Notes: generated from the letters alone by a model not told the origin. A stretch of 38,084 bases of DNA from Bacteroidota bacterium (GCA_947459115.1 CANHCC010000003.1:1-38084), one strand, 5' to 3'; shown: positions 3,238 through 22,981, counted from the stretch's first letter. Made by a program: numbers and translations.

Positions 3238-4776
3238 ATGCGCAATAGACTAAACCATACCATCAGGCTCGGGATATTTGTAATTGTATCCCTTCAATCA
3301 CTTTATGGCCAGTATGAAGATAGAAACTGGGTTTTTAATGTAAACCAGGGATTGAAATTTTTGCCGGACGGGAATGTTTCATTTTTTAGTTCTCTATTGA
3401 ATGATTCTATTTGGGATGGTTTTTCTCAAGCTTGCATTAGTAACCAAACTGGTGATTTGATGTTTTATTCAGGCACCCATGACTCTATTCCTCAACCATC
3501 AACTTCATTTAATTTCTTATTTGACAGAAATCATCAATATGTAAAGAACTCATTTAATCTATCTTCCTGGAGTGGGCAAACTCTGATTTTACCAGCAGAT
3601 ACGATTGAGCGTTTTTATCACTATTTTCATCAAACTTTATATGGGGCTCCTGAAGGCAGACCATTGTTCTACTCAGAAATTGATGCTTGGGGTAATGGGG
3701 GGTTAGGAGAAATTACATCTAATAAAAATATCAGAATATTTATCAATCCTACAGTAACAAATTTTACTTCTGTAAAACATGCCAACGGAAGAGATTGGTG
3801 GGTAATTGCTCATGAATATGGTACTAATCAATTTTTGATACTAAACACGGTACCAGGTGGTAATCATATCAAAAAATATCAATCAATAGGAGAAGTTTTT
3901 GGAAAATATGATAATGGAGGCTGGGGGAGTGGAGGGGGTGGAATTGGACGATTTGTTTTCAGTAAAAATGGTGAAAAATTAATTACATTATGTTTAGATG
4001 GTACAATTGATTTTTTTAATTTCGATAGATGTAATGGTATATTTAGCAACTACCGGAACATTAGACAGGGTACTATTGTTGGAACTGGAAATATTATTAT
4101 TTACGATGCATGCTTATCTCCTAACGGTAGATTTTTGTACACTTTAGGAGTCAATCCAATTTCTTCTAATAGATGCTATATAGACCAATATGATTTAAAT
4201 GCAGATGATATTTTAGCTAGCAGGGTTATTTTATATACTTCACCACACTTAAATGTTGAATTATACGGTATCTCATTAGCACCTAACGATAAGATATATT
4301 TTACAAAGAAAAATTCTGCACCTACTCCCAATTCTTTTCCAGGTCAGGATTATTTAGGTGTCATTCATCAGCCAGATAATAAAGGTTCGTTGTGTAATCT
4401 TGACTTGTATGGATTATACCTAAATGGAGGTAAATCTTCTTTGTCACTCCCACATATTCCTAACTTTCATTTAGGCCCTGTTGATGGAAGTATTTGTGAT
4501 TCGTTGGGTATTGATGCTGTTTCCTCATCGCCTCAATATACAACTCGTGAGAATAATATTTTAATTTATCCCAATCCTAATGAATATCTAAATTCAAAAC
4601 TTACAATCAATTATCCATCTTCAATTTACCATGTTATTATTTACGATGTAACAGGAAAATCCATCTGGGAACATATTGATGAAAATACTATTATTAATTT
4701 ACCAGAAAACCTAAATTCTGGAATGTATCGCGTGGTAGTATCGGGTGTTGGGAGTATAAATTGGATTGTAAATTAA
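3238..4776 (+). CDS. Secreted beta-propeller-like protein with T9SS type A C-terminal sorting domain
   Basis: Signal peptide, KHANGRDWWV motif, propeller-type repeats (FSKNG, LSPNG, LAPNDKIY) and C-terminal IYPNP...IYDVTGK...LNSGMY. Visibly AT-rich. Confidence 0.8.
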   Translation: MRNRLNHTIRLGIFVIVSLQSLYGQYEDRNWVFNVNQGLKFLPDGNVSFFSSLLNDSIWDGFSQACISNQTGDLMFYSGTHDSIPQPSTSFNFLFDRNHQYVKNSFNLSSWSGQTLILPADTIERFYHYFHQTLYGAPEGRPLFYSEIDAWGNGGLGEITSNKNIRIFINPTVTNFTSVKHANGRDWWVIAHEYGTNQFLILNTVPGGNHIKKYQSIGEVFGKYDNGGWGSGGGGIGRFVFSKNGEKLITLCLDGTIDFFNFDRCNGIFSNYRNIRQGTIVGTGNIIIYDACLSPNGRFLYTLGVNPISSNRCYIDQYDLNADDILASRVILYTSPHLNVELYGISLAPNDKIYFTKKNSAPTPNSFPGQDYLGVIHQPDNKGSLCNLDLYGLYLNGGKSSLSLPHIPNFHLGPVDGSICDSLGIDAVSSSPQYTTRENNILIYPNPNEYLNSKLTINYPSSIYHVIIYDVTGKSIWEHIDENTIINLPENLNSGMYRVVVSGVGSINWIVN

Positions 4777-9681: not shown

Positions 9682-10368
9682 ATGTCAAACATCGCATTAA
9701 AGGCCTCGCATATTGATAAATACTTTCACGATCCATATAAGGTACAAGCCTTGAGAGACATCGAAATCGAAGTACTAAAAGGTGAATTCGTATCTATTAC
9801 AGGGAAATCAGGATGTGGCAAATCTACCTTGCTATATATTGTTTCCACAATGGATACAGATTATACGGGAGAATTATGGATTGACAACAGTTGTATGACA
9901 GGTAAATCTGAACCGGAATTGGCCAAAGTCAGAAATGAAAAAATAGGGTTTGTATTTCAATTTCATTATTTACTTAATGAATTTAGCGTGCTAAAAAATG
10001 TAATGCTTCCGGGGATGAAATTACATCCGGAAAATAAATTGGAAATAGAGTCCAGAGCGGTAGAATTATTGAAATTATTAAAAATTGAACATTTGGCGCT
10101 TAAACGCGCTAACTTAATTTCTGGCGGGGAAAAGCAAAGGGTTGCGATTGCAAGAGCATTAATTAACAATCCAATTATAATAATGGGGGACGAGCCTACC
10201 GGTAATTTAGACAAAAAGAATTCAGATATTGTATTGGAAATATTCCATCAGTTATCAGAGGAATTAAATAAAACCCTTTTGATTGTTACCCATGACTTAA
10301 ATTTTGCCAGACAGACGCACCGAAACATCTATATGGAAGATGGAAGAATTATAGATAATCCATTTTAA
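9682..10368 (+). CDS. ABC transporter ATP-binding protein (LolD/MacB-like)
   Basis: Walker A GKSGCGKST, GFVFQFHYL, signature ISGGEKQRVAIARAL, DEPTGNLD and VTHD. Confidence 0.95.
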   Translation: MSNIALKASHIDKYFHDPYKVQALRDIEIEVLKGEFVSITGKSGCGKSTLLYIVSTMDTDYTGELWIDNSCMTGKSEPELAKVRNEKIGFVFQFHYLLNEFSVLKNVMLPGMKLHPENKLEIESRAVELLKLLKIEHLALKRANLISGGEKQRVAIARALINNPIIIMGDEPTGNLDKKNSDIVLEIFHQLSEELNKTLLIVTHDLNFARQTHRNIYMEDGRIIDNPF

Positions 10369-10437
10369 CTTTTAACGACCCTCAACATAGACGCATATCG
10401 AGAAGAGCAAATGCGAAAATATGGACGGATACCCTAA

Positions 10438-10833
10438 TTAAACCAATGCCTCTGCAATTCGCTTTGCCATTTCACTTAACTCCTCCTCCGACCAACTACG
10501 CCTGGATTTACCAAAATCCATATCTGTAACACGGTCAATCGGAATCAAATGTATATGAGCATGCGGAACCTCCAGTCCTATCACACTGACCCCAATTTTA
10601 GTACAGGGCACAACCTTTTTTATGGCCTGTGCAACATACTTTGAAAAAAGATGAAGACCCATCAGACTTTCATCATCCATATCAAAGATATAATCCACTT
10701 CCTTCTTGGGAATGACCAATGTATGACCCGGTGCAAGAGGCTGAATATCCAGAAATGCGAGATAATCATTTGTTTCTGCCACTTTATGGCAGGGAATTTC
10801 TCCTGAAAGGATTTTTGAAAAAACAGAAGCCAT
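10438..10833 (-). CDS. HIT family hydrolase
   Basis: AFLDIQP, GHTLVIPK and the histidine triad VPHAHIHLIP. Confidence 0.95.
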   Translation of the reverse strand: MASVFSKILSGEIPCHKVAETNDYLAFLDIQPLAPGHTLVIPKKEVDYIFDMDDESLMGLHLFSKYVAQAIKKVVPCTKIGVSVIGLEVPHAHIHLIPIDRVTDMDFGKSRRSWSEEELSEMAKRIAEALV

Positions 10834-10835
10834 GA

Positions 10836-11309
10836 TTATCTGCCGATATGTAAAATTTCAAATTTTAATACCCCGGCCGGCACTTTAATTTCAACCACCT
10901 CACCAACCGACTTGCCCAAAAGCCCCTTGCCTATTGGACTGTCCACAGATATCTTACCTTCCTTTAAGTTGGCCTCTTTCTCAGAAACCAGGGTATAAGT
11001 GACCTCTGATTTGTTATTAAGATTCTTCAATTTCACTTTTGCCAAAACAGTGATTTTACTCAAGTCCACATTAGACTCATCAATCAACCTGGCATTGGCT
11101 AGTAAATCTTCCAATTTGGAAATGCGTAATTCATGCATGCCCTGAGCCTCTCTTGCTGCATCATATTCAGCATTCTCAGATAAATCGCCTTTCTCTCGCG
11201 CTTCTGCGATAGCATGTGCAATGTCCGCCCTGCCTTTGGTCTTTAATTCCTGTAATTCGGCCTTTAACTTTTCTAGCCCTTCTTTTGTGAAATAAGATAT
11301 ATCTGCCAT
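10836..11309 (-). CDS. greA: Transcription elongation factor GreA
   Basis: AREKGDLSENAEYDAA and ISVDSPIGKGLLG; start re-set to MADISY (ATG at 11309). Confidence 0.97.
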   Translation of the reverse strand: MADISYFTKEGLEKLKAELQELKTKGRADIAHAIAEAREKGDLSENAEYDAAREAQGMHELRISKLEDLLANARLIDESNVDLSKITVLAKVKLKNLNNKSEVTYTLVSEKEANLKEGKISVDSPIGKGLLGKSVGEVVEIKVPAGVLKFEILHIGR

Positions 11310-11333
11310 AATCTGTTTCCTGTCAAAATTGAT

Positions 11334-11374
11334 AAAACAAAAAGGTTGACAGCCACAGGTGACTGACAACCTTT
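11334..11374 (-). terminator. Hairpin plus U-tract between the PorV-like gene and greA (operon terminator and/or greA attenuator)
   Basis: Minus strand AAAGGTTG-T-CAGTCAC-CT-GTGGCTG-T-CAACCTTT followed by TTGTTTT. Confidence 0.7.
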
Positions 11375-11382
11375 AATATGTA

Positions 11383-11414
11383 CAAAATTACTACTTTAAA
11401 AATTACAAATCAAT
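11383..11414 (-). promoter_or_regulatory. Putative greA promoter (ATTG-N20-TAATTTTG)
   Basis: Bacteroidota -7 consensus at 11383-11390 and TTG-type -33 element at 11411-11414. Confidence 0.55.
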
Positions 11415-12524
11415 GCGCAATCCGATGTTGTGGGTACCGGAGAAGGGATTGCTGGTACGGTAGGCGTAATCCACTGCAAACTTGGAATTCTGGTCTTTTC
11501 CGGATTTAAAAGGAATCTCAAAAGAACAGCCCATTGAAAGACCGGTATGCACATTTATCCTTTCAGCATCTGCAATCCACATGGGCAACTTATCATTAAT
11601 CCACATGTCGGAGAAAATCCCTTTCTCAAACGAATATGCAGATCTCAACATGAAATATTCCCTAAACTTATATTCGAAACCTAACCCTAATTGATCACGA
11701 GAAAAGGTGTGGGAATAGAAAGTACCTAAGGCTGTAAGCGTGTGCTGCTCTGCCAGCTTGAAATCATAACTTACACCCATCGTCAACAAGGAGGGTAATT
11801 CATACTTGGAACCAACCCGACTAACAGCAGAGGAGAATGCATTGCCATTGAGATTAGCCCTCTGTTGCAAACCATCGCCTGAGAACCGCATGGCAGGACC
11901 AATATTTCTAAGGGAAACCCCGATTTTCAATCTGTAATTTTCTGCCTCAATTTCTTCCTTCTTAAATGAAGTACGATACTGAACCCCGGCATCAAAAGCC
12001 AGACCGGTTGCAGAAGCATCTGTAATCGCTTCATGAATCATACGTGTGGTAAAACCGACATTTATTTGATCCGTGAATTGTTTAGCATAAGAGGCCCCGA
12101 TATTCATGAAAGTAGGACTGAAAGTTCCTAAACCGCCGTCAGGATTGTTTTCAGTAGTTCTTTCAATTTCGCCAAAATCAAACGCCATGACAGACAAACC
12201 TATCACGCCACCTTTACGCGTAGCCTGTGACAATCCAAAAGAATTGATGTTGATGGCAGATCCTGACAACCAACGCGTATGACTAAAAACGAATTCCGTC
12301 TTTTTCGTGTAGGCAAGACCAGCAGGATTATTAATCGCACTTTCAATCCCATAGGCGTTGGCAACATTCATCCCGTTTACACCGGAACTTCTGGCCCAAG
12401 GATTAATCAGCAACTGGGTGGCACCTGCCTGACCCACACGGTCAGGATTACCTGCAAAACTCAGGCTGAATCCCAACATCAGCCAGCAAATGAGTATCGA
12501 TAGTTTTTTCATTTTCGTGTTCAT
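11403..12524 (-). CDS. PorV/PorQ-family (FadL-like) outer-membrane beta-barrel
   Basis: Signal peptide, GQAGATQLLINPWARSSG, NPAGLA, alternating beta-strand pattern, DYAY and a terminal GLRIDL strand. Start could be 12512. Confidence 0.85.
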   Translation of the reverse strand: MNTKMKKLSILICWLMLGFSLSFAGNPDRVGQAGATQLLINPWARSSGVNGMNVANAYGIESAINNPAGLAYTKKTEFVFSHTRWLSGSAININSFGLSQATRKGGVIGLSVMAFDFGEIERTTENNPDGGLGTFSPTFMNIGASYAKQFTDQINVGFTTRMIHEAITDASATGLAFDAGVQYRTSFKKEEIEAENYRLKIGVSLRNIGPAMRFSGDGLQQRANLNGNAFSSAVSRVGSKYELPSLLTMGVSYDFKLAEQHTLTALGTFYSHTFSRDQLGLGFEYKFREYFMLRSAYSFEKGIFSDMWINDKLPMWIADAERINVHTGLSMGCSFEIPFKSGKDQNSKFAVDYAYRTSNPFSGTHNIGLRIDL

Positions 12525-12540
12525 TCAGTGAATTTCCGGA

Positions 12541-15500
12541 TCAGAATGAGTTCAAGTCAATTTCAGGCATGACAGCAAAGAACTTCACTGTTTTATGCCC
12601 TAATTCAAATCCATCAACATGGATGATATACAAACCACTGGAGATAGGCACCCCTACACTATTTCTCATATCCCATGCCTGGAAGGTTTCAGCACTTTGT
12701 TTGTCATAGGTCCTAACCAAATTTCCGCCCAGGGTATAGATACTAATTTTACAACGCTGTGGAAGGTTGGTGATTTTAACAGTGGACTGCAACTGAGAAT
12801 TCTCATATTGAGAGAATGCATAATATGGATTAGGGACAACTCTAACCAAATCCTTCAAGGACTTTTCAGCAACAGCCTCCTGACCGGTCTCTGCTGCATA
12901 ATTTTGCATGTTAATGATGTAAGCAGGATTTGCATCCGGAGTTGCACCTTTAACAAACTGACGCTTTACTCTCAATGACACACGAGCTTCACATGGCATA
13001 TTAGCAGGATTCTTAAAGCTATACTGAGGCGAGCTTAATACTGGAATGGTTGTCCAGGAAAGGTTTCCATACACATTTGTGATAACCTTATTGCCGTTGA
13101 TAGATCCATTAGTGGCAAGATAACCTGTAAAAGGGGCAGGAATAACCAGGTTGGAGGCGATTTGTGCGCAAGCATCATAAGGAGTATTACTTACATAGAT
13201 ATAATGATGCCCACCTGCAAGGATTTCCAGGCGATTACCAGAAAGCGTAACCTGCTGACCAGTAGGGTTGAAGAGCATATCATTACCATTCTCAGATGCA
13301 TACCAGCTATTTTCACCAAAGAAGATATTTAGTCTTTCTCCTGTTTGAACATTGTAGGCATAACCGGGGAACCAACTCATACCGGTTGAACCAGATTCAT
13401 TTACCCCATTTTGATCTTTACTTGGCGCCCATCTTGCCAGGAAGCAAGGGGTACCGCTTGCTGCGAGGGCAGTGTTCGGCTGAGTTTCAACTACCACACA
13501 ACGAGACCATTTAGATTTATCCGGAGTTAGGACAATTTCGACATCTTGAAGCGTTGAAAGATTTGCCAAATCTGGAATGGTCACCTGAGAAGTGGTGGGA
13601 CGAAGACCCCACCTTCCATCAGAAGCATTGTAGTTACGGGTCATACCGAAAGGAGCCCAGGTTCCACCTAGTATGCCCTCAAAAAATTCATTAGGATCAT
13701 ACAAGCGATTAATTTGATAAGCACCCGAAGCGTTATCGGCCTGAGGATTCAAACCAGAACCAGTTCTATTCCCGGACAAAATCCAGTTAAAGGGAGAATC
13801 ATCTACATCCTGCAACCCTGTTAACCAAGGCTTAGAAGGATCAGAGAACGACAACCTTCCATCGATCAAACCATTGGTTTCATCAGCGGAATCTCCGGGA
13901 TTGGAAACCTGGCGTACCGCAATAGAAATACCATGACCGGTAATAATTCTTTCGGAACCCATTAACGGCATCGGACGAAACTCTTTAGTCAAGCTATTCC
14001 GGTAATATTCAGACATGAAAATTGGCGTCCAACCTGAACCCGAGTTTTCGTACAATACCCATTCGGCAAAAGTGGTATCGTAACGGGGTGGAACCTGAGA
14101 AATATCATATCGAACGGATAGGACAGAGTCAAATACCATACGAACCATATACTCACTGGCCTTAACATCTTTAGGATTTACCACTTTTACAGAAATCGGG
14201 CCCAAATTCTCACGGAACCTCAAAGCAGATACCGCAGAATTAGCTACAACCAAATTCTCGCTTTCCTGAGTTAATTGAGTAAAATTGCCACTATTGCCAT
14301 TTCCAGCAATGCGAGTAATCTCAGGTCCTAAACCAAACGCACTATTAATCTCCGTTCCAAAATTCTCGAAACTAATTTTGTGTGGAGTAGCGATTGTGTT
14401 AACGAAGTTTCCGTTACCTGGGAGGAATTTCAACCCATCGGAAGTAGTATCATTGTGGGCATAGGCAACAATCCCAAAATAATAATTCTTGTAGTTAATA
14501 AGGTTGTTGTCTGATCCTGAAGCGAATTGATCTTTGGTCACCCTTACAGCACTAAATATCCCTTTATTCTCGCCTTGAACCATGACCTCATCCGTTGTTA
14601 GGAAATCCCCACTTCCCGGAACAGGGGTCTGATATCTATTGATGATAGTGGATACATTATCAATAATATCACACTGTGCAATCAAGCGCGCCTTATCCGG
14701 ATCTCTCAATTGATCTGCTGTAACTGTTGGGTCTTTTAATTGATACAACATGTACCCTTGGAACTGAAAGATAGAATCAGGAACTAAGGCTGCACTCAGA
14801 GTAGGATCTACCTGAGCATAGGATTCATTAAAATTGTTAGATGGAAAATTCTTGTCATATTTCCATGAGATTAACAATTCCTGATCGTATTCATCGATTT
14901 TCAAGATTGGAGCATCCGGACCGGTCAACAATTGGAAATTAGCATCAAACAAAGCTTGAGCAATATCATCTGCCTTTAAGACCTCACAGACAGAACCAAA
15001 TTGATCATCATAATATCCTCTTGCCCAAACAACACCTGTAATAATCTCATTTTCTGCACCTGGCACCAAAGTGAAGGGGCCGGCGGATTGCAATAGACGA
15101 CGGTCAAATGGCGTGTTGTTGGCAGACTTTTCATTCCAACCAAATGTATTAGCGAAATTACAGGAGGCAGAATTTCCCGGATATCCATAATACATATAGT
15201 CAGTAGCCGGACCTGCAGCAGTTGCAGGGAAACCATTTCTGCCATTGTCCACCATTCTGGAGCCATCTTTCCATCGTCCGATCAGGTAATTGTAAAAATG
15301 AATCGCCTTTTCAGGATTTCCTCTCAAAGAAAAATCATTTTCGTAGTAAATAAATTTCTTCATTCCAAGACGATTTCCGTCATCCCCAACAGGACCTTGG
15401 AAGAAGTCAACCCCTAATGCCGGCGGATTAAGACCGTAACCGGTTGCGGTTTCATCATCTGAATCTCCGTTGTAAGCGTAACCCAAACCTCTTATCGTAT

Positions 15501-16404
15501 CACAGCCGACATAGTCATCTGCATAATTACCGACATCAATATCTGCCCAAGCTCCCATGTAGGTGTCAAACAAAGTATTGTTGGAACGATTGATAACTTT
15601 TTGGGAATAAAATGTCATATTATTGATGGCATTTGCAGTTGCAAAACCAAAGGCCATCATCTGAATTTCTATACCAATAGCCTCACCACCGGTTGCAGTA
15701 TGCACATTCCCTTTGTCGTTAATGACCCACCAGATAGCCTGATCCCCTTTGATTTTGGGATAATCCCCTGCATTGGGATTATAAGTATTGTCACCATCGG
15801 TATCTACGAAAGGCGCTAAATAGAAGGATGTACCGGCATCACCGTGCGCTGGCCAGGTTTGTACCACAGGATACTTGGAAAAATCTACAGTACCTCTGGC
15901 AAAATCTGAACGGAATAAATCAATTTCAGCACGGGTAATTTTATAGTGCTTATCCCATTTAACACAAGTTGCCTCATCAACAGAAGCTCCGTTCAGGGTA
16001 AGAGGTCCAGGCCAAAAGTCATTCCCATCCTGACGATAGGTTTGAGCTGCTATTCTTAACTGGTTACTTGCATCAATTCCTCCGATCCACAAAGAAGCTG
16101 CGAAAGAAGAATATCTTCTCAATGAAGGATTCCCATCAATCTTAGGCACTTCGTAGCGAGGATTAGCATTCAAATCCCACCACATATCTCCTCCGTTCAA
16201 GAGCAAAGCCCGAACATTGTTTACATCCAGGTTCACAGAAGAAGTGGAAGGGAAACAGGTACTGGCAGTTCTTAAAGCACTACCTGAGGCTTGTCCATTA
16301 TTCTGTTTCGGTACGAACCCCTGAATTTCCCTCGCAACTCCGGAGAGTGACAGGAAGGTAAGGGCAACGAGCAGTAATAACTTGTTATTCATATATCTTA
16401 ACAT
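12541..16404 (-). CDS. Large secreted protein (1287 aa) with a T9SS-type C-terminal sorting (Ig-like) domain
   Basis: Signal peptide; LDVNNVRA..GDMWWD..LWIGG N-terminal region; DxDGD Ca-binding-like loops; C-terminal VVPNPY...ITNLP..ISIYTLGGNLVR...WD...ISSGLYIIHV. Confidence 0.8.
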   Translation of the reverse strand: MLRYMNNKLLLLVALTFLSLSGVAREIQGFVPKQNNGQASGSALRTASTCFPSTSSVNLDVNNVRALLLNGGDMWWDLNANPRYEVPKIDGNPSLRRYSSFAASLWIGGIDASNQLRIAAQTYRQDGNDFWPGPLTLNGASVDEATCVKWDKHYKITRAEIDLFRSDFARGTVDFSKYPVVQTWPAHGDAGTSFYLAPFVDTDGDNTYNPNAGDYPKIKGDQAIWWVINDKGNVHTATGGEAIGIEIQMMAFGFATANAINNMTFYSQKVINRSNNTLFDTYMGAWADIDVGNYADDYVGCDTIRGLGYAYNGDSDDETATGYGLNPPALGVDFFQGPVGDDGNRLGMKKFIYYENDFSLRGNPEKAIHFYNYLIGRWKDGSRMVDNGRNGFPATAAGPATDYMYYGYPGNSASCNFANTFGWNEKSANNTPFDRRLLQSAGPFTLVPGAENEIITGVVWARGYYDDQFGSVCEVLKADDIAQALFDANFQLLTGPDAPILKIDEYDQELLISWKYDKNFPSNNFNESYAQVDPTLSAALVPDSIFQFQGYMLYQLKDPTVTADQLRDPDKARLIAQCDIIDNVSTIINRYQTPVPGSGDFLTTDEVMVQGENKGIFSAVRVTKDQFASGSDNNLINYKNYYFGIVAYAHNDTTSDGLKFLPGNGNFVNTIATPHKISFENFGTEINSAFGLGPEITRIAGNGNSGNFTQLTQESENLVVANSAVSALRFRENLGPISVKVVNPKDVKASEYMVRMVFDSVLSVRYDISQVPPRYDTTFAEWVLYENSGSGWTPIFMSEYYRNSLTKEFRPMPLMGSERIITGHGISIAVRQVSNPGDSADETNGLIDGRLSFSDPSKPWLTGLQDVDDSPFNWILSGNRTGSGLNPQADNASGAYQINRLYDPNEFFEGILGGTWAPFGMTRNYNASDGRWGLRPTTSQVTIPDLANLSTLQDVEIVLTPDKSKWSRCVVVETQPNTALAASGTPCFLARWAPSKDQNGVNESGSTGMSWFPGYAYNVQTGERLNIFFGENSWYASENGNDMLFNPTGQQVTLSGNRLEILAGGHHYIYVSNTPYDACAQIASNLVIPAPFTGYLATNGSINGNKVITNVYGNLSWTTIPVLSSPQYSFKNPANMPCEARVSLRVKRQFVKGATPDANPAYIINMQNYAAETGQEAVAEKSLKDLVRVVPNPYYAFSQYENSQLQSTVKITNLPQRCKISIYTLGGNLVRTYDKQSAETFQAWDMRNSVGVPISSGLYIIHVDGFELGHKTVKFFAVMPEIDLNSF

Positions 16405-16421
16405 GACGAATCAGCTATGCA

Positions 16422-19400
16422 TTAAAAGTTAAAGGAACATCCCAAACGCAGACGACGCGGAATACTGAAGTTTCCAGGATTCTGAGCTTTGATTTGGTAC
16501 AATTGGGTAAAAGCAACCGGATCGATTTGAGCAGCGGTCTGCTGACGACCCTGATTGGTATTCAGATAACCATCATCATCCGGTAATCCGGAAGTACGAT
16601 AAACACTAAGGATATTTTGAGTATCAAAAATATTCAATACCAACAGGAAGATATTTAGAGAATATTCACGCTTGTTGTACATAACGCCATCCGGGCCTTT
16701 TGCAGACTTGCCTCCAAAGGTAAAGTCCTTATCTAAACGAAGGTCACAACGAATTTGGAAAGGCGTGCGACTTCCGTTCGGCGTACCAGCCAACTGAATA
16801 CTCTGGTTAATACCAAACTGAACATCCGCAGAGTTGGCCAGACTGTTTCGGGAATATGGCGTACCAGATCCTAACAAGAAGGTAAAGTTAGCACCGGCAT
16901 CTTTAAAGGGATATTTCCCGAAAATTTTTGGACCGAATTTATTGGCGGCTGAAATATAACGGTAATCCGCAATGGCACGGAACTGATGTCTTTGATCAAA
17001 ATCCAATGGTAACAAGACACGAATGGCACTGAAACCATCCACATTGTTACTGGCATTACGATTGGAGGTAAAGCTTGAACCTGTACCGCTGGCAAATGAC
17101 ATAGTGTAAGAACCTTTCAATTGCAGATTGTTCATACGACGGAAGTCAATGTCAAAAATGAAACCTTTAACTGTTCCAAAATCCAGGTTGGTAAAGGTTG
17201 TGTAACTAATAGGATAGGCATTAATCAATTGCTGAACCTGAATCATATCCCGCATCTCACGGTAGAAAGAAGAGGCTGTAATACTTGCATTGTTGCTGAT
17301 CTTTTGTTTAAACCCTGCCTCGTACTGAATGTTTTTGGTAGGACGAAGATTTGGATTGTTGATTGCAACGGTAGCACGATTTTGAAGGAATTCATAATCC
17401 GTCAACTGACTTAGAATACCACCTCTCGGACGAGCTGTTAACACATCATAATTTGCAAAGAACAAAGCTTCATCACTGATAGGGAAAGAGAAAGAAATAC
17501 GAGGCATGAAATTCACCTGAGCCTGATAATCTGTCATAGACTCAACACTAAATTGATTGTCTTTAATGACTGGCTGTACACGACCACTTGCAGTTTGCAA
17601 TAGGTTGGAAGAAACAGGTGATCCATTCGCATCGTACCAAATATCCCCGTCACGATATCCCACGATTCTTGCTTCTCCTCCGAAATCTGGAGAGCTTACA
17701 TAAGGAATCCATTCTTTGTCTATGTTGCCGGGTAATTCACCGCCCGGAAACATATTAGGATAAGCGGCCAAAGCCTCTTCCGCATTGTAGGCAGGATACA
17801 ATAAATAACGATCCTTCAATACCAACTGATTGGCATCAAAACGATCTACCCTCAAACCCACATTAAAATAGATATCCTTAAATTCAAATTTGTCTTGAAT
17901 GTAACCAGCTACATAAGTTGGAGCATAAGCATTCAATGGACGATTTTCTTTTTGCTCCTGATCGAAGAATCTTCTGGAGCTTGCATTTTTTACCAGGTTA
18001 CCTTTGTAGTCATAACCATAATAATCTACGTAAGAATTACCATTGTTCCATAATTCATCAGCGGTAAATAAGTTCAGAGAGAAAACGGATGGATTTAATC
18101 CGTCAATATTCAAAAACTCTGTACCGTTGGGGTCTTTACCTAAGGCCTCTCTGAGTTTGCGATCGAAAGAAGATTGATCGGCTTCTACAAAACGACGATT
18201 GAAACGAACTGTATCTTGAAATTCCCCTCCACTATACACAGGGATTGGGTTCGCCGTATCCAATTCGGTAATGTGACGATTTGCCAATTGACGCATATAG
18301 GGCCACAAGCCGGATGCACTCAAAGAATAAGCTCTGTCATAACGCTGGTCAAACTCAAAACCCAATTTAATGTTATGGTTTTTGATTTCAGCGGTTGTCT
18401 GACCGGTCAATCGAATCATTTGCTCATGAGCACGAGAAAAACCGGTAGTTCTGGTACCGGGTGCATTATACAAGGAGTAAATGTTGGCAGGATTATCGCC
18501 ATTTCTTAATCCCCCAATACTTGTTAATTCCACAGAGTTACGAACGGTTGTTCCCTGTTGAGCCAAGTAATTGTAAATAAAATTGTTGTAATTCGCTAAG
18601 ATTGGATTTTGTGTTCCTTCATCACTGTAAACAAATGAAGTATCCTGGAACCCGACAGTTTGCCAGTAAGGGGTATTACTAATTCTTGGATCAGGCGTAT
18701 CATTAAACTGAAATACCTCCGCTTGTTTTAAATCAAATTTACCAAGATAACCATAACTAAAGGTATTATCTCTCCAGTCCCTATCTCCGGAGAAGGCAGT
18801 TCTTAAAGAATAATCTCCCTGAATAGAGTAAAACAGATTTTTAACCAAAGAAGAAGAATCTCCCTGGAAACTTTGATTTAACCTTGCCCAACCACGATAG
18901 GTGTTATCTTCAGTTATGGTAATGGTTTTAGGAGAAAGAATATAACTGTTTTGGCTCCAGTTTTCAAGCGTCGTTCTGTTATAGGTAAACCCAACTTTCA
19001 CCCCTGTATTTTGTGCTGGTTGAAAATCTAATCGGGCATTGGCACGATAAGAATTTACTCGCGCATTGGAACGAGCCTGAACATTTTTAAAATCTCCAGA
19101 CCTCAGAAAGTTTGCATTATTAAGGAAAAAAGAACCATCAGGAGAAACTCTCAATGGATCCTGTTCCAGTTTTTCCAATAATCCATCATTTAATTGAAAG
19201 ATCCCAATCGCTGAAGGACTTGGATCGCCTTGTAATTCAGCCTCAGCGTTTAAGAAATATCCAAGTATGGTTTTCTTGACCCCATTTGACTGCTTTTTAG
19301 ACCAAATCGGACCTGCTAGATTTACCCCTAATAAGTCATAATTGTATTTGTCAAACAGACGACTGGTTTGGGCTTCAAAGCCACCTGATATTTCAGAGCT

Positions 19401-20087
19401 GGGCGCTGCGGTAGAGATGGAGATAACCCCACCTGTTACATCCCCGAATTCTGCAGGCGTACCGGAAGTAACGATATCCATTTGTGCAATTGCTCTCTGA
19501 GGCGGAAGATTTCTTGCACCACGGACACGAACCCCATCCACGAAATATTCTGTTTCCTCCGGACGAGAACCACGAACACTGATACCACGACCTTCGTCCG
19601 ATTGAAACACCCCGGGCGTACTATTCGCTGCGATAGAGATCACATTTCTGGAACCCATTTTTTGGATTTCATCGGCTGTAACCTGACGGCCACCGCGCGT
19701 TTGATCTTTTTCAATGAGCGGAACCTTATATTCTATAACCTCTGTCGTAGCCAATTGAGAGGTAGTAGAAATTTCAATATCAAGGGTTTGTGTACGACCC
19801 GCTGATATCAAAACATCATTAATTTCTACAGATTTACCTGTGTAAGAGGCAACCACCTTGTACTTTCCGGGGGAAAGAGGGGCTATACTGTAATTTCCTT
19901 CAAAGTCGGCTCGGGTTCCGCCTTTGATAATTCCATTTTGCTCAACACGGATGATTGCATCAATGAGCTCCTCTTTTGTGTCTTTGTCTCTGACTTTACC
20001 GCTCAATTTACCAGCATCTGACTGTGCCAACAGCAGTTGTCCGGATAGTGCGAACAAAATGAAAAACCAAAAAGTCCTTAGTAACAT
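16422..20087 (-). CDS. TonB-dependent receptor-like protein with N-terminal carboxypeptidase-regulatory-like domain
   Basis: GKLSGKVRD..G.Y.I..L.PG.Y N-terminal domain; plug motifs VRGSR..YFVDG and G.PAEFG..GGVI; GLRVDRFD, PRISFSFPI, NPNLRP; terminal aromatic residue (FNF). Confidence 0.88.
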   Translation of the reverse strand: MLLRTFWFFILFALSGQLLLAQSDAGKLSGKVRDKDTKEELIDAIIRVEQNGIIKGGTRADFEGNYSIAPLSPGKYKVVASYTGKSVEINDVLISAGRTQTLDIEISTTSQLATTEVIEYKVPLIEKDQTRGGRQVTADEIQKMGSRNVISIAANSTPGVFQSDEGRGISVRGSRPEETEYFVDGVRVRGARNLPPQRAIAQMDIVTSGTPAEFGDVTGGVISISTAAPSSEISGGFEAQTSRLFDKYNYDLLGVNLAGPIWSKKQSNGVKKTILGYFLNAEAELQGDPSPSAIGIFQLNDGLLEKLEQDPLRVSPDGSFFLNNANFLRSGDFKNVQARSNARVNSYRANARLDFQPAQNTGVKVGFTYNRTTLENWSQNSYILSPKTITITEDNTYRGWARLNQSFQGDSSSLVKNLFYSIQGDYSLRTAFSGDRDWRDNTFSYGYLGKFDLKQAEVFQFNDTPDPRISNTPYWQTVGFQDTSFVYSDEGTQNPILANYNNFIYNYLAQQGTTVRNSVELTSIGGLRNGDNPANIYSLYNAPGTRTTGFSRAHEQMIRLTGQTTAEIKNHNIKLGFEFDQRYDRAYSLSASGLWPYMRQLANRHITELDTANPIPVYSGGEFQDTVRFNRRFVEADQSSFDRKLREALGKDPNGTEFLNIDGLNPSVFSLNLFTADELWNNGNSYVDYYGYDYKGNLVKNASSRRFFDQEQKENRPLNAYAPTYVAGYIQDKFEFKDIYFNVGLRVDRFDANQLVLKDRYLLYPAYNAEEALAAYPNMFPGGELPGNIDKEWIPYVSSPDFGGEARIVGYRDGDIWYDANGSPVSSNLLQTASGRVQPVIKDNQFSVESMTDYQAQVNFMPRISFSFPISDEALFFANYDVLTARPRGGILSQLTDYEFLQNRATVAINNPNLRPTKNIQYEAGFKQKISNNASITASSFYREMRDMIQVQQLINAYPISYTTFTNLDFGTVKGFIFDIDFRRMNNLQLKGSYTMSFASGTGSSFTSNRNASNNVDGFSAIRVLLPLDFDQRHQFRAIADYRYISAANKFGPKIFGKYPFKDAGANFTFLLGSGTPYSRNSLANSADVQFGINQSIQLAGTPNGSRTPFQIRCDLRLDKDFTFGGKSAKGPDGVMYNKREYSLNIFLLVLNIFDTQNILSVYRTSGLPDDDGYLNTNQGRQQTAAQIDPVAFTQLYQIKAQNPGNFSIPRRLRLGCSFNF

Positions 20088-20496
20088 AGGTTCAATATTC
20101 TTTGTGGTTGAATGTTTTCCTCTAATTGAAATTTTAACAATTGGTTAAAATAAGGAAACATGAGCTTAAAAAACAAATTTTCGCAATAAATAGACTTTTA
20201 CTGCGTTAAGTTTATTTTAATCCCACGTTTCGTGAGGGTGAAACTAAAAAAAAACCTTTTACGAAGCTTTTTCAATTTTCGCATTTGATTACACTCAATT
20301 TTTAACTTATTGAATATCTGAATAATAAGATGAAATTATCCGGAAACTTTTTTTTCCGAAAACATCGTCAGAAACAATTCCTGCCTCCTTTTAACCAAAA
20401 TTCTCTGAAATTTTCCCGGCGGACTCTTACCGAATTCTTTTTAAAGGAACCAATACCGCCAAAAGCCCGTAATTTTAACATCAACAAATCAAATTC

Positions 20497-21390
20497 ATGA
20501 AAATATTACTCGTCGGTGGATCAGGAACAATAGGCAAACACCTGATCGAAGATTGGCTTCTTGCCGGTCATCAAGTACAAAATCTAAGTCGCTCCTCAAT
20601 GGATGCCCTTGTGACTTCGGCGGGCTCACTTCTTCAGCAACAATGGGATGGCCAGACCATTCCAGATACTGAATTCAGACCAGACCTGGTTGTGAATCTG
20701 GCCGGGGCAGGTATCGCAGACCATGCTTGGACGCCTGACAGAAGAAAACTCATCCTCGATTCCAGAATCAAATCTACCCGTGCCTGTGTAGAATACATCC
20801 GTAAAAATACCGACAGCGTCAAATTGTTTATTAACTCCAGCGCGGTTGGGTTCTATGGAGCACATAGGGAAGAGATATGTACCGAAGAGTCAAAACCCGG
20901 CAATGATTTTCTGGCAGAAGTGTGTGAGGCCTGGGAAAATGAAGCCAAACGAGCCCCTGTCCGAACAGTCTTGTTAAGAACCAGTGTGGTCATAAGCAAA
21001 TATGGCGGGGCCTTACCCAAAATGTTACCCGTATTCAAAGCAGGGATTGGTGGATGGCTTGGCAATGGAAGACAACCTTTCCCATGGATTGATGGCAGAG
21101 AATTTTCGCATTTGATTCAATGGCTGATGGACCACCCCGAAGCATCCGGGCCCTATAACATTTGCTCCCCTCAATCTATCAATAACAAACAATTTTCTCA
21201 GGCGTTATCGGAGGCTGTTCATCGCCCTTGTCTCTTCGCTGTTCCTGCCTTTGTGCTAAAGATTATGTTGGGAAGCCGGGCAGACTTGGTGCTGAAAGGT
21301 CAGAATCAGGTTCCGGAAAGGCTAACCCGGGAAGGGTATGTTTTCAAATACGATAAGATTTCTGAGGCTCTGCATTTTCATACCCGCTAA
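20497..21390 (+). CDS. TIGR01777-type NAD(P)-dependent epimerase/oxidoreductase (YfcH-like)
   Basis: GGSGTIG, VVNLAGAGI, SSAVGFYG, FLAEVCEAWE and LGNGRQPFPWI. Confidence 0.92.
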   Translation: MKILLVGGSGTIGKHLIEDWLLAGHQVQNLSRSSMDALVTSAGSLLQQQWDGQTIPDTEFRPDLVVNLAGAGIADHAWTPDRRKLILDSRIKSTRACVEYIRKNTDSVKLFINSSAVGFYGAHREEICTEESKPGNDFLAEVCEAWENEAKRAPVRTVLLRTSVVISKYGGALPKMLPVFKAGIGGWLGNGRQPFPWIDGREFSHLIQWLMDHPEASGPYNICSPQSINNKQFSQALSEAVHRPCLFAVPAFVLKIMLGSRADLVLKGQNQVPERLTREGYVFKYDKISEALHFHTR

Positions 21391-22856
21391 AGTTTCCCTT
21401 TTCCCAAAGAATGTTGCTCAATCCATTCTTCCAATCGAATCAATTCAAAGGAGGCGGGATTAAAAGGCACTTTATGATGATAATCCTGTAAGCGAGCAAT
21501 TTCCTTTTTCAGATAGGACTCTGCTGCAAAAAAATCAAACTGATGTTTATGCCAAATGGAAATTATCTCTGTCAGTAATTGTCCACGGGTAGTATCTTCT
21601 TCCGGCTGCGTGCGACGGATAAATTGTTTTAGATTTTCTATCCGGCTGTCCAGTATATCACGCTTCCCAGCCTCGTATAAACTCATAATTTCCAAAAGCC
21701 TCAGGGCGATATTCCAACCCGATTTATCGGCCATGACCGGTGTGGCTTCAATCAACTGACGATTACATTCCCGGAAATTGCCTTCTTTGAAGCGGAGGGC
21801 AGCTTCAAAATACTTCCATCTTCCAATTCTAATCTTTGATATGGCGAGCATTGGGTGTTGCACGGCTTGCTTCAAAATATCGTTACAACGATTTAAGTCA
21901 TTCTTTAAAAACGCAATTCGAAAATCTGTTTCCAGAGCAATCAGAAAATTCACCTCGTCCGTCTTATACAAAGACAGGGTCGCTTTGATGAAGGTAGATG
22001 CCCTGTGAAATTCTCCCCCTCTGAGACACACTTCAGACAACTGTAATAATGCAGCCCCTTCCCTCTGCCTGGATTGAAGGGCAGGAGACTGTCTCACCAA
22101 TTCTAGCAATTCTTGAGAAAATCGGCGGGCAGAAACAGAATCATGGGTGATCAGATGATAATAAATAGCAATCTTCAAATAATAAAATCCAATCTGGGGA
22201 TGCGCTGTGGTCTCCCAAATGTGCTTTAAAACATTAAGGGTATTTAAGGCGTCTTCAAATTCCTGGGCATCTTTAAAGGTCGTTGAAGCCAATAAACCAG
22301 ACATTCGATAATACAGAATACTGGCCTCCTGATATTGCGCCACCTGCTGACTTAATATTCTCAATTCCTCCACTGCCCTCAATAACTCTGTGGCCGGCAT
22401 ACTGTTACAAGCATGGCGAAATAGCAACATTTGGGCATGAAAACACTCCTCCAAAAAAAAATACTTTTTAGAGGTAACGATTACCTGTTCCAATAAATTC
22501 TTACTAGCCGCATAAGCTCCCCGTCCCATCAGGATCTCGCCCTGAATCAATCGTTTTTTTGTGGTAAGGAGGGCAACAACATGTTCAGCGTCGTATTCCT
22601 TAAGACTTCTTTCCCCCAGAAGGGACTCCTCCATTAACTTTTTTAATCGTGCTTTGGTTACACGAAAACTATTCTCCGCATCCTTCTGGTATAATTTTCG
22701 AGCAAAAAAATTTTCCTCCTCTTTGGGATATTTTACAAGCAGTTCGAAAAGTTTACCAACTTTCTCAAATTCATGCGGATTATTGCGAATCTGTGATTTG
22801 ATTCGTTTGATTTCCTGTAAAGAGAGTTTTTGATAAATATCTTGTATGAGATCCAT
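21387..22856 (-). CDS. Hypothetical all-helical (TPR-like) cytoplasmic protein
   Basis: Long ORF of helical character with no signal peptide. ATG at 22856 preferred over GTG at 22913. Confidence 0.7.
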   Translation of the reverse strand: MDLIQDIYQKLSLQEIKRIKSQIRNNPHEFEKVGKLFELLVKYPKEEENFFARKLYQKDAENSFRVTKARLKKLMEESLLGERSLKEYDAEHVVALLTTKKRLIQGEILMGRGAYAASKNLLEQVIVTSKKYFFLEECFHAQMLLFRHACNSMPATELLRAVEELRILSQQVAQYQEASILYYRMSGLLASTTFKDAQEFEDALNTLNVLKHIWETTAHPQIGFYYLKIAIYYHLITHDSVSARRFSQELLELVRQSPALQSRQREGAALLQLSEVCLRGGEFHRASTFIKATLSLYKTDEVNFLIALETDFRIAFLKNDLNRCNDILKQAVQHPMLAISKIRIGRWKYFEAALRFKEGNFRECNRQLIEATPVMADKSGWNIALRLLEIMSLYEAGKRDILDSRIENLKQFIRRTQPEEDTTRGQLLTEIISIWHKHQFDFFAAESYLKKEIARLQDYHHKVPFNPASFELIRLEEWIEQHSLGKGKL

Positions 22857-22981
22857 CCGATTGGTGATTATATGTGAAGATACGGATTTCCATACTGTAT
22901 CAGATGAATACACCCCTTGATTTCAGATAAAAAAAAGGCTCCGCTTACATGGAAAATTGTGCGCTTACCCCTACCCCACAT

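Follow-up and report, generated by a model that had tools for sequence, protein, structure and literature searches.

A conserved triad of genes for a TonB-dependent receptor, a large protein with a T9SS CTD and a PorV-like barrel: a probable surface capture-and-import complex in Bacteroidota

The window, i.e. the whole stretch of 38,084 nucleotides analysed here (Bacteroidota bacterium, GCA_947459115.1, CANHCC010000003.1:1-38084), contains three co-directional genes on the minus strand, located by ORF calling at 16422-20087, 12541-16404 and 11403-12524. In this order they encode a TonB-dependent-receptor-type outer-membrane protein (P0001), a large protein that has a T9SS CTD in addition to its Sec signal peptide (P0002) and an outer-membrane barrel of the PorV/PorQ family (P0003). 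The genes are separated by only 17 nt (16405-16421) and 16 nt (12525-12540). The first upstream ORF lies on the plus strand and starts at position 20497, which leaves 409 bp of intergenic DNA (20088-20496, minus strand) as a putative promoter and 5' leader. A scan of this DNA for sigma-70-type promoters gave 23 sites against 23.9 in shuffled sequences, i.e. no excess, and a search of the leader against Rfam returned chance-level snoRNA matches only. The opposite end of the triad is marked by an intrinsic-terminator-like hairpin with a U-run (11333-11374, minus strand); the hairpin itself (11341-11374; dG -17.8 kcal/mol, z -4.21) is not matched in stability by any of 200 shuffles, and was found by reading and folding of the sequence, being absent from the list produced by the terminator scan. 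The ORF coordinates and the folding therefore confirm the layout given in the original prediction. Further genes of the window encode GreA, a HIT protein, a MacB-type ABC exporter, an epimerase, the product of an unassigned 508-aa ORF and a beta-lactamase-family protein. As had been claimed, there is no SusD, CAZyme or regulator among the triad's neighbours in the window, and the housekeeping surroundings of the operon likewise offer no inner-membrane transporter.

The source organism is a freshwater-lake bacterium, and contigs of RNA libraries from four freshwater studies map onto the triad. The X15 contigs span positions 11414-20226 and the X16 contigs 11548-20216, while the flanking DNA is barely covered. 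Their upstream ends (20226 and 20216) lie about 130-140 nt upstream of the receptor ATG, and at the hairpin side the X15 contigs end near 11414. Each gene junction is bridged by one such contig, although these contigs may include DNA and so stop short of proving a single transcript. The best explanation of the locus is a single operon encoding an outer-membrane module.

P0001 (16422-20087, minus strand; 1221 aa) has the architecture expected of a TonB-dependent receptor, with a Plug followed by a large C-terminal beta-barrel. Its N-terminal part (residues 28-111; 19755-20006, minus strand) is a CarboxypepD_reg-like domain (PF13620, 41 bits; PF13715, 38.2 bits), and the Plug occupies residues 135-221 (19425-19685, minus strand; PF07715, 36.8 bits, cut-off 23.9). 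The barrel matches in Pfam both TonB_dep_Rec_b-barrel (residues 534-1072; PF00593, 47.3 bits, cut-off 27) and OMP_b-brl_3 (PF14905, 47 bits, cut-off 27). The Plug motifs RG.R...T.Y..DGV and GG.PA..GD..GG recur in 70% or more of 75 orthologues; in the segment searched for a TonB box (residues 112-134), P123 and D129 alone reach this level of conservation, and no TonB box was recognisable with confidence. A sequence search of the PDB with P0001 gave no match. Membership of the SusC/RagA group was rejected, since TIGR04056 gave no match to P0001 at E<=0.1; there is also no SusD-like neighbour. The same holds for the genome at large (92% complete), in which PF07980 (SusD) has no match and the profile search found no SusC above the cut-off.

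P0003 (11403-12524, minus strand; 373 aa) is a FadL-like barrel belonging to the PorV/PorQ family, as judged by its score with the PorV_fam model NF033709 (161.8 bits, cut-off 90). It falls well below the equivalog cut-offs for PorV (NF033710, 77.8 against 250), PorQ (NF033711, 71.6 against 220) and PorV2 (NF052325, 37.2 against 325). A profile of 40 P0003 orthologues matches the Flavobacterium johnsoniae PorV chain 6h3i_F (6h3i; E 2.7e-19) and, at E of about 1e-5, TodX/TbuX; the identity of P0003 to the genome's own PorV is 28% over 205 aa. The housekeeping roles are filled elsewhere, by PorV on C10 (395.2 bits), PorQ on C83 (298.3 bits) and PorV2 on C32 (440 bits), so that P0003 was rejected as the sole housekeeping PorV. 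The genome separately encodes SprA, an adjacent PorU-PorV pair, PorQ, PorZ, PorV2, PorU2 and one more PorV-family orphan, and the description of P0003 as a private PorV paralogue is thus well founded. In total, the genome has six PorV-family genes, and two genomes of the class Rhodothermia have 11 and 16.

The middle protein, P0002 (12541-16404, minus strand; 1287 aa), belongs to no family of Pfam or NCBIfam, in which it yielded a weak C-terminal signal only. Its relatives at E<=1e-30 form 3042 clusters (50% identity), and the family comprises several thousand unnamed proteins of 1100-1400 aa. Searches of the ESM Atlas led to unnamed clusters and to a Fidelibacterota cluster with Por_Secre_tail (score 0.92), and a sequence search of the PDB gave a single chance match. 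In two AF2 models (pLDDT 85.2 and 88.0) P0002 is predicted to be globular and multi-domain, without repeats. Foldseek comparison of these whole chains gave low TM scores, and a wide search with VIA-align was more informative. According to the latter, residues about 50-492 (14929-16257, minus strand) are predicted to form a galactose-mutarotase-like beta-supersandwich, best matched by 9ju0 (Z 19.0, rmsd 3.2 over 252 residues), then by 1ulv (Z 18.5) and by the N-domains of GH94, GH65 and GH116 enzymes. The alignment to GH15, GH94, GH65 and GH116 proteins, in which a catalytic domain of (alpha/alpha)6 or similar type comes after the supersandwich, is confined to this N-domain (model residues 26-468, Z 15-19), the rest of the model being beta-rich. 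Mutarotases (Z about 13) and YidC P1 (Z 12.6) are also similar; the supersandwich fold is known in proteins that do not bind glycans, YidC P1 being an example. The claim of several DxDGD-type loops has to be reduced to a single strict DxDGD (201-205), which lies within a conserved DxDGD...GDYP loop (201-216); other conserved Asp-rich stretches are located at 288-301 and 313-318.

The highest conservation, with invariant columns, is found in the central beta-rich region (residues about 493-1177; 12874-14928, minus strand), which contains the motifs WFPGYA.N..TGERLN..FGE, DM.WNPT and GG.H.IYV. R1024, E1031, D1042 and H1067 are its most conserved residues, a set that would suit catalysis no less than the binding of a ligand. 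Outside the N-terminal domain, VIA-align found no match to the P0002 models of Z>=8 other than those to the CTD, the central region being searched as part of the whole models.

Residues about 1178-1279 (12568-12873, minus strand) form a predicted Ig-like C-terminal beta-sandwich, and together with the T9SS of the genome this identifies P0002 as a T9SS-CTD protein. Both the structural model and profile searches place the CTD in the PorZ/PorU (FlgD-Ig-like) subtype. Its best structural match is PorZ (5m11_A; Z 11.6, rmsd 2.1 over 89 residues, 26% identity), with the next at Z 8.1, and in Foldseek it reached a TMt of 0.64-0.67 with the CTDs of NucA, RemZ and RemA. It does not qualify as an ordinary type-A CTD: P0002 scores 15.9 bits with TIGR04183 (cut-off 23), exceeded by 77 matches above the cut-off elsewhere in the genome, and has no match with PF18962 at E<=0.1. 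The NCBIfam PorZ model NF052228, which covers two beta-propellers plus a CTD, matches the C-terminal end only (model 666-751; E 6.9e-7, 28.1 bits, cut-off 260); P0002 was accordingly rejected as PorZ itself, which the genome encodes on C100 (471 bits). A profile of the P0002 family also gave weak matches in the PDB, confined to the CTD, with PorZ (E 0.044), PorU (0.16) and FlgD (0.18).

In a scan of every ORF segment of the genome (12821) with an HMM of the family CTD, P0002 (155 bits) was followed by a protein of a second cluster of a TonB-dependent receptor and a PorV-like barrel on C36 (49.7 bits), and then, weakly (E 3e-4 to 9e-4), by PorU (20.2 bits), PorU2 (19.7) and PorZ (18.6). No other segment reached E 0.005 (next C21, 0.0066, 15.8 bits), and few of the 77 TIGR04183 matches are among the matches listed. 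VPNPYY (1190-1195) is invariant or almost so among 49 relatives, and K1274, near the CTD end, is conserved in 48 of them. The CTD is followed by a family-specific tail, P-E-I-D-L-N-S-F (12544-12567, minus strand; consensus R-P-x-D-L-x-x-F), with D1283 present in 48/49 relatives and a terminal F or Y in 45/49. In an alignment, this tail is missing from PorZ, PorU and PorU2 of the genome and from three ordinary type-A CTDs. The notion of an atypical CTD with VVPNPYY and an extra tail is therefore upheld across the family. PorU and PorZ are cargos reported to retain their CTDs, with PorZ reported to be anchored on PorQ (PMC10947112). By analogy, the mature P0002 may likewise retain its CTD; the predicted tethering of P0002 through this domain thus has a direct precedent in proteins whose CTDs are the nearest to it in structure and in the genome, retention itself being inferred from that likeness.

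The triad is strongly conserved. Among 40 genomes of the same order, 35 have the genes in the same order and strand (31 with all three on one contig and four cut by contig ends), and the remaining five are without all three. A seeming absence from G001, a genome of the same genus, was rejected as a case of loss because in that assembly only 198 nt separate the start of the neighbouring gene from the end of a contig. In public sequences, both neighbours accompany the P0002 homologue at 50 of the 54 judgeable loci; the four exceptions are extra copies, in genomes that have their receptor and barrel orthologues at another site, 4.4 kb from each other. Of 20 distant loci, 19 preserve the order, and some of these are of Rhodothermales type. 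Identities, which amount to 42-74% within the order and about 30-40% across classes, co-vary between the three proteins (r 0.78-0.91, n=50). Given this conservation across genomes and loci, the arrangement is far beyond chance, and the survey bears out, for Bacteroidota, both the joint conservation of the three genes and the statement that similar triads occur in other genomes. The suggested correlation with sprA was also observed: all 46 carriers of a homologue among 301 genomes of the phylum are SprA-positive, and none of 64 SprA-less genomes carries one, although 63 of these belong to one family (with one other) and the correlation therefore amounts to about one independent event. Of the 237 SprA-positive genomes sampled, 191 yielded no member of the family.

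The same design recurs with other middle proteins. In genome G048 (class Rhodothermia), seven of the 11 PorV-family genes close a triad of TonB-dependent receptor, protein with the same CTD subtype and PorV-like barrel, in which the middle proteins differ. Downstream genes encode a Chondroitinase_B-type lyase in one of these triads, an ABC sugar-binding protein in another and a CBM20 protein in a third. In the alginate locus of Rhodothermus marinus, a TonB-dependent receptor, a protein with a T9SS type A sorting domain and a PorV/PorQ protein are drawn in a row (PMC9530828, Fig. 2). A search for earlier descriptions of the triad or of PorV paralogues, in literature outside subscription journals and supplements, yielded two Rhodothermus gene maps only.

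We propose that the products of the three genes probably assemble into a surface complex for capture and import, in bacteria without classical SusC/SusD. The best reading of the data, in which our confidence is evenly balanced with doubt, is that P0002 is a T9SS-delivered surface subunit docked on a PorV paralogue and serving a TonB-dependent importer. In this scheme, Sec would carry all three proteins across the inner membrane, the receptor (NTE-Plug-barrel) and the PorV-like barrel would insert into the outer membrane, and the CTD would guide the 1287-aa protein through the SprA translocon of the T9SS. The CTD, of PorZ/PorU subtype and bearing the extra tail, might then escape cleavage by PorU and be captured and held by the private PorV paralogue, in the manner of PorQ-PorZ and PorV-PorU. 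The large protein would thereby be displayed at the cell surface beside the receptor, in physical contact with both barrels, where the supersandwich and central domains may bind a ligand (a glycan being the likeliest) and pass it to the receptor for inward, TonB-powered transport. The module would thus be a T9SS-built analogue of SusC/SusD in an organism that has neither. An uptake role is consistent with the lack of SusD and SusC in the genome, with a supersandwich of a type found in glycan enzymes, and with the occurrence of triads beside a polysaccharide lyase and within an alginate locus. Of the uptake-or-adhesion machine originally predicted, it is the uptake half that fits these observations; adhesion is possible, and received no specific support.

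Other explanations account for parts of the evidence. The PorV paralogue could be a dedicated shuttle that collects a single cargo at SprA, the CTD being removed and P0002 acting as a free or LPS-linked enzyme or binder whose products are imported by the receptor without a stable complex. PorV has indeed been described as a shuttle whose extracellular loops bind CTDs inside SprA (PMC10994853, PMC10947112), the near-invariant K1274 (48/49) matches a conserved CTD lysine reported to contact PorV (PMC10994853), the genome encodes PorU, and the conserved polar motifs of the central region would suit an enzyme. We nevertheless consider this unlikely, though worthy of serious attention: the CTD remains under the type-A cut-off passed by 77 other matches and ranks with those of PorU, PorU2 and PorZ, and since the remaining proteins with type-A CTDs are presumably handled by the housekeeping PorV, a conserved tail and a strict one-to-one linkage with the barrel throughout the phylum seem more than a transient shuttle needs. 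The resemblance to PorZ could equally be taken as the mark of an envelope-biogenesis or T9SS-accessory machine, with a PorZ/PorU-like surface enzyme or carrier for a cell-surface glycolipid or glycan placed on a PorQ-like barrel, and a receptor-like barrel that delivers or exports the substrate instead of taking up a nutrient. The single-copy state of the gene among housekeeping genes, the high conservation of all three proteins (42-74% within the order, about 30-40% across classes), the invariant R, E, D and H of the central region, and the precedent of the PorU2/PorV2 pair (modelled in NCBIfam as a second putative sortase/barrel pair and present in this genome) would all agree with such a role. 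A core part of the T9SS should, however, not be missing from 191 of 237 sampled SprA-positive genomes; moreover, the receptor keeps a canonical plug, and the seven triads of G048 have differing middle proteins and partly nutrient-type neighbours (lyase, ABC binding protein, CBM20), which makes this machine quite improbable in our view.

It is very unlikely that P0002 is an adhesin with its own anchor, used in gliding or in attachment to particles or prey, and that the receptor is a mere neighbour. Dedicated co-encoded barrels, PorP/SprF-like, are known for type-B CTD adhesins (PMC9143113), and P0002 is large and surface-directed. P0003, however, is of the PorV/PorQ family and not of the PorP/SprF one (TIGR03519, 13.8 bits against a cut-off of 90.55), P0002 is modelled as a globular, multi-domain protein free of repeats, and the linkage to the receptor gene is no less strict than that to the barrel gene. 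An accidental adjacency of three unrelated genes deserves almost no credence, being contradicted by the order kept across classes and by joint presence or absence in 40 relatives.

Nutrient capture in Bacteroidota is explained almost wholly by SusC/SusD pairs and surface lipoproteins, and the T9SS is viewed as the exit path of enzymes, adhesins and components of its own. If true, the proposed module would unite both fields in a TonB-dependent transporter whose partner arrives through the T9SS and is retained by a dedicated PorV paralogue. It would explain why, in many environmental Bacteroidota, PorV-family genes far outnumber the requirement of the T9SS (6 here; 11 and 16 in the Rhodothermia genomes) and how polymers are taken up in lineages without SusD, and it would give a role to the several thousand unnamed proteins of 1100-1400 aa. 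Given the freshwater-lake host and the lake metatranscriptome contigs found on the operon, its function is relevant to how carbon is turned over in lakes. A broader proposal, which we consider somewhat less likely than not, is that PorV-family barrels, beyond being parts of the T9SS, may serve as general docking stations, each for a single cargo, by which surface subunits are added to TonB-dependent transporters through the T9SS. Receptor, CTD protein and PorV paralogue would together form a hidden, SusD-less class of T9SS-built uptake complexes in polysaccharide and other nutrient loci of Rhodothermia, Chitinophagales-like and other Bacteroidota, of which the triad of the window would be the most conserved member, inherited phylum-wide.

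Among published loci, the alginate locus of R. marinus (hypA, hypB) is similar in that the three annotations recur there in identical succession, within a locus for polysaccharide utilisation (PMC9530828). Its genes are shorter, at 2805, 2181 and 1056 nt, and the likeness is one of annotation; hypA and hypB are listed as hypothetical only, without comment or experiment (PMC9530828). The triad of the window, unlike that of R. marinus, has no catabolic neighbours. A close parallel to the proposed anchoring is provided by PorZ-PorQ and PorU-PorV of the T9SS attachment complex of Porphyromonas gingivalis, where a T9SS surface protein with a retained CTD is bound to a barrel of the PorV/PorQ family (PMC10947112); the CTD of P0002 is structurally nearest to that of PorZ and, in sequence, has its nearest relatives of known type within the genome in PorU, PorU2 and PorZ. 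These pairs include no TonB-dependent receptor, PorZ and PorU being T9SS components with other passenger domains, and P0003 stays below the cut-offs of both PorV and PorQ. SprB-SprF and other pairs of type-B CTD cargo and PorP-like barrel share the principle of a cargo-specific, co-encoded anchoring barrel (PMC9143113), but differ in barrel family (PorP/SprF instead of PorV/PorQ) and CTD type and have no receptor. BamG-BamH, a pair belonging to the BAM complex of Bacteroidota, likewise joins a large surface protein to the extracellular loops of a FadL/PorV-like barrel, the partner in this case being a surface lipoprotein without T9SS signal or receptor (PMC12578637); complexes of TonB-dependent transporters with lipoproteins exist as well (PMC12578637). 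By analogy, the triad may follow the capture-then-import logic of SusC/SusD (including BtuB-BtuG), with which it shares a receptor with a carboxypeptidase-regulatory-like extension and a plug, co-encoded with a large putative surface partner. SusC and SusD form a lidded pair. The partner proposed here differs from SusD in that P0002 is neither a lipoprotein nor SusD-like and would reach the surface by the T9SS route, and in that a PorV paralogue always takes the third place.

The receptor, the large middle protein and the PorV-like barrel are encoded on the minus strand in a tightly packed operon: P0001 (the TonB-dependent receptor; 16422..20087, 1221 aa) is followed by P0002 (the middle protein; 12541..16404, 1287 aa) and P0003 (the barrel; 11403..12524, 373 aa), with intergenic gaps of 17 and 16 nt. 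Upstream, 409 bp separate the P0001 start from a gene that begins at 20497 on the opposite strand, and a hairpin (11341-11374; dG -17.8 kcal/mol, z -4.2) with a U-run is located 30 nt past the P0003 stop. The three-gene layout of the original prediction is therefore borne out in all these respects, as is its statement that no SusD, CAZyme or regulator is adjacent: the neighbours in the window, assigned with Pfam, comprise greA, a HIT protein, a MacB-type ABC exporter, an epimerase, an unassigned ORF and a beta-lactamase-family protein, and none of those three types. The greA ORF as called (10836-11369, minus strand) has a TTG start that overlaps the operon terminator hairpin; translation more probably begins at an ATG near 11309. 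A 508-aa ORF at 21387-22913 (minus strand), for which the Pfam search gave no family, has a counterpart of 68% DNA identity in G001, a genome of the same genus, where it lies 198 nt from the start of a contig.

Nearly identical copies of the window occur in freshwater and lake metagenomes from 13 studies (two runs may be the source of the window DNA itself), and contigs from four metatranscriptome libraries map to it. These RNA-library contigs span 11414-20226 in library X15 and 11548-20216 in library X16, and depth falls close to zero at 10300-10673 and across most of 20398-21500; the flanking exceptions are 1.39 (20398-20771) and 0.76 (21146-21500) in X15, and 1.6 (10674-11047) in X16. The P0001/P0002 junction is bridged by one X15 contig (16088-18749) and the P0002/P0003 junction by one X16 contig (12095-13025); such contigs do not prove a single transcript, and RNA libraries can contain DNA. 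In two studies the contigs end upstream at 20226 and 20216, which hints weakly that transcription starts about 130-140 nt ahead of the P0001 ATG.

The three genes are conserved together. Among 40 genomes of the same order, close homologues of the three proteins are all encoded in 35 and all missing from five. Of these five, G009 has a completeness of only 56%, and G001, of the same genus, does not show a loss, as its contig breaks off beside the neighbouring gene. Of the 35 carriers, 31 have the genes on one contig and one strand, running receptor, large protein, barrel, while in the other four (G007, G011, G035, G037) the triad is cut by contig ends and the pieces are consistent with this order. 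In the GTDB species genomes, 528 stretches encoding a relative were found and 80 kept, of which 54 loci had sufficient flank on both sides; both triad neighbours are present at 50 of these, and the remaining four are extra copies in genomes whose receptor and barrel orthologues stand 4.4 kb apart on another contig. In a sample of the phylum, P0002 homologues (E<=1e-40) occur in 46 of 301 genomes, and 19 of the 20 distant Bacteroidota loci examined contain the three genes in the same order, the exception being a second copy in G207. The middle protein of more distant classes is about 1100 aa long and shares with P0002 600 residues at the N-terminus as well as the CTD (the C-terminal sorting domain of type IX secretion system, T9SS, cargo); one type of this kind belongs to Rhodothermales, judging by its nearest public records. 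Over 50 loci, the three proteins vary together in percent identity (r 0.91, 0.85 and 0.78; descriptive values, as the genomes are related), a sequence pattern that fits inheritance of the triad as a unit.

Extra P0002-like genes also occur in tandem. In G137, three further copies follow the triad (L121:11792-19861), and several large genomes of the same order carry arrays of ~870-aa proteins with the P0002 N-terminal domain (about 50-490), e.g. at G025:C71:24996-33026 and on G006:C1, G015:C6, G021:C107 and others. These additional proteins could serve as alternative surface subunits.

P0001 combines a carboxypeptidase-regulatory-like N-terminal domain (28-111) with a Plug domain (135-221) and a TonB-dependent-receptor barrel (Pfam/NCBIfam). 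P0003, with at least 3538 relatives, belongs to the PorV/PorQ family (NF033709, 161.8 bits, cut-off 90), whose model has six matches in the genome of the window (2.86 Mb, 280 contigs, 92% complete). These are PorV proper (C10, 395 bits on the NCBIfam model), encoded directly downstream of PorU (1202 bits), PorQ (C83, 298 bits, NCBIfam), PorV2 (C32:17120-18310, 440 bits on NF052325), a weak match on C31, and two orphan genes, namely P0003 and that of a 353-aa protein on C36. P0003 is 28% identical to the PorV of its own genome over 205 residues, and with PorV, PorQ and PorV2 encoded elsewhere it is a private paralogue, as had been proposed, and not the sole housekeeping PorV. SprA and PorZ are present too, and the type-A CTD model has 77 matches over its cut-off. 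PorU2 (C75:1-3741, truncated where the contig begins; 389.8 bits on NF052324) and PorV2, encoded on different contigs, form a putative second sortase/barrel pair. In the window itself, a 512-aa protein (3238-4776, plus strand) carries an ordinary type-A CTD (TIGR04183 29.6 bits, PF18962 23.6 bits), with no family assigned to the rest of it.

The same genome, 92% complete, contains no match to SusD (PF07980) and no receptor over the SusC/RagA cut-off, the best reaching 92 bits vs 368. About a dozen of its receptors are 760-830 aa long with an N-terminal regulatory-like domain. Within the phylum sample, every one of the 46 carriers of a P0002 homologue encodes SprA, and no homologue occurs in the 64 genomes that lack SprA; this correlation is roughly one independent observation, because 63 of the 64 come from one family. 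The P0002 family is absent from 191 SprA-positive genomes of the sample.

P0002 itself belongs to no Pfam or NCBIfam family. Its unnamed family numbers at least 3410 relatives, with E<=1e-30 reached by 3042 clusters (50% identity). Two AlphaFold2 models were built from a 49-sequence alignment, covering residues 25-770 (pLDDT 85.2) and 741-1287 (pLDDT 88.0). In the model, residues about 50-492 form a galactose-mutarotase-like beta-supersandwich with long insertions, most similar to the N-terminal domain of dextran dextrinase (9ju0; Z 19.0, rmsd 3.2, 252 residues), followed by the N-terminal domains of glucodextranase (Z 18.5) and glucoamylase (Z 18.2), GH94, GH65 and GH116 enzymes and, more weakly, mutarotases (Z about 13) and the YidC P1 domain (Z 12.6); the matches to glycan enzymes are limited to their non-catalytic domain. 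The central region (residues about 493-1177), modelled within the larger segments, is predicted to be beta-rich, has no match to a solved chain at Z>=8, and carries the most conserved motifs of the family. The several DxDGD loops noted in the original prediction come down to one strict conserved loop (201-205) and further Asp-rich stretches.

The last 100 residues scored below the cut-off of the type-A sorting domain model (TIGR04183, 15.9 bits vs 23) and matched the C-terminal end of the PorZ model (E 6.9e-7). They are modelled as an Ig-like sandwich, by far closest to the PorZ CTD (5m11; Z 11.6, rmsd 2.1 over 89 residues, 26% identity; next match Z 8.1), while Foldseek also gave TMt 0.64-0.67 for the CTDs of NucA, RemZ and RemA as bound in the SprA-PorV translocon. 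The extra tail noted for this CTD is real and conserved, with D1283 in 48 and a terminal F/Y in 45 of 49 relatives. An HMM of the CTD columns of the family alignment, run against every one of the genome's 12821 ORF segments, matched P0002 (155 bits), a 696-aa protein on C36 (49.7 bits, E 2e-13), PorU (20.2 bits), PorU2 (19.7) and PorZ (18.6), and no further segment at E 0.005; weaker matches lie on C21 (E 0.0066), C181 (0.011) and C157 (0.045), the last two overlapping type-A CTD matches. Searched against all PDB sequences, the whole-family profile found only PorZ, PorU and FlgD, with weak E-values (0.04-0.24). The motif WD..(D/N)..G is common to the aligned CTDs of P0002, PorZ, PorU, PorU2 and the C36 protein, and is not found in three ordinary CTDs of the genome. 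The P0002 CTD is thus a subtype of its own, whose nearest relatives are the CTDs of T9SS components.

The same design recurs. The C36 proteins are encoded in a cluster (G000:C36:3787-16028) comprising, in order, a 436-aa endonuclease/phosphatase-family protein with a type-A CTD, the 696-aa protein with the triad-type CTD (no family), a 713-aa ExeM/NucH-like nuclease with a type-A CTD, a 499-aa unknown protein, a 972-aa CarboxypepD_reg-Plug-barrel receptor with the architecture of P0001, directly after it the 353-aa orphan barrel, and a 396-aa unknown protein. This cluster is possibly the triad's counterpart for DNA utilisation. In eight relatives, a second P0003-like match is accompanied, at a distance of about 7 kb on its contig, by a gene for a ~700-aa protein with the triad-type CTD. 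PorV-family genes number 11 in G048 (loci L155-L165) and 16 in G076, both genomes of another class. In G048, seven of the 11 close a triad of receptor, CTD-subtype protein and PorV-like barrel, one belongs to a PorU-PorV pair and three stand alone. The seven middle proteins (738-1262 aa; CTD HMM E 1e-13 to 3e-23) have no Pfam family, and neighbours of these triads include a FadL-like gene with a Chondroitinase_B-type lyase, an ABC solute-binding protein, a CBM20 CTD protein, an amidase with a beta-lactamase, and FG-GAP/ASPIC and TPR proteins.

Beyond the observed gene linkage, protein families, folds, CTD subtype and genomic context, we infer a retained CTD, contacts between the proteins, a ligand and a direction of transport. 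According to the best-supported reading, which has about an even chance of being right, P0002 would be exported by the T9SS, P0003 would capture and keep its PorZ/PorU-like CTD, conserved tail included, and this pair would form, with the co-encoded receptor, a surface capture-and-import unit. P0003 could instead be a transient, cargo-specific shuttle, after whose action the P0002 CTD is cleaved, which we consider unlikely. It is a little less probable that the triad is an enzyme complex of envelope biogenesis or a T9SS accessory, a view suggested by its housekeeping neighbourhood and by the conserved R1024/E1031/D1042/H1067 patch in the central region of P0002. That P0002 is an adhesin with an anchor of its own is very improbable, and for genes that stay together over such distances adjacency by chance is next to negligible.

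If the capture-and-import reading is true, the triad is a functional analogue of SusC/SusD. Its parts are individually known or resemble known kinds (TonB-dependent receptor, PorV/PorQ family, T9SS CTD cargo). In open-access PMC and bioRxiv we found no description of the three-gene unit, the CTD subtype, the middle family or PorV paralogues beside receptors, and just two unannotated gene maps. In the published alginate utilisation locus of Rhodothermus marinus, a TonB-dependent receptor, 'hypA' (T9SS type A sorting domain) and 'hypB' (PorV/PorQ family) are consecutive and are given without comment (PMC9530828), and Table 1 of PMC6987092 lists, for the xylan locus of this species, a TonB-dependent receptor and then hypothetical proteins with the sorting domain; these genes resemble the triad in their published annotation. 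A bolder reading, which we put forward tentatively and as somewhat more doubtful than not, is that the triad is one instance of a general class of transporter complexes built by the T9SS. The closest known mechanism, and what the tethering idea of the original prediction amounts to, is that of PorZ and PorQ: according to Gorasia et al. 2022 (PMC10947112), PorQ is the barrel that anchors PorZ, the two assemble into a subcomplex without PorU or PorV, and PorQ may replace PorV at the translocon, collecting its own substrate.
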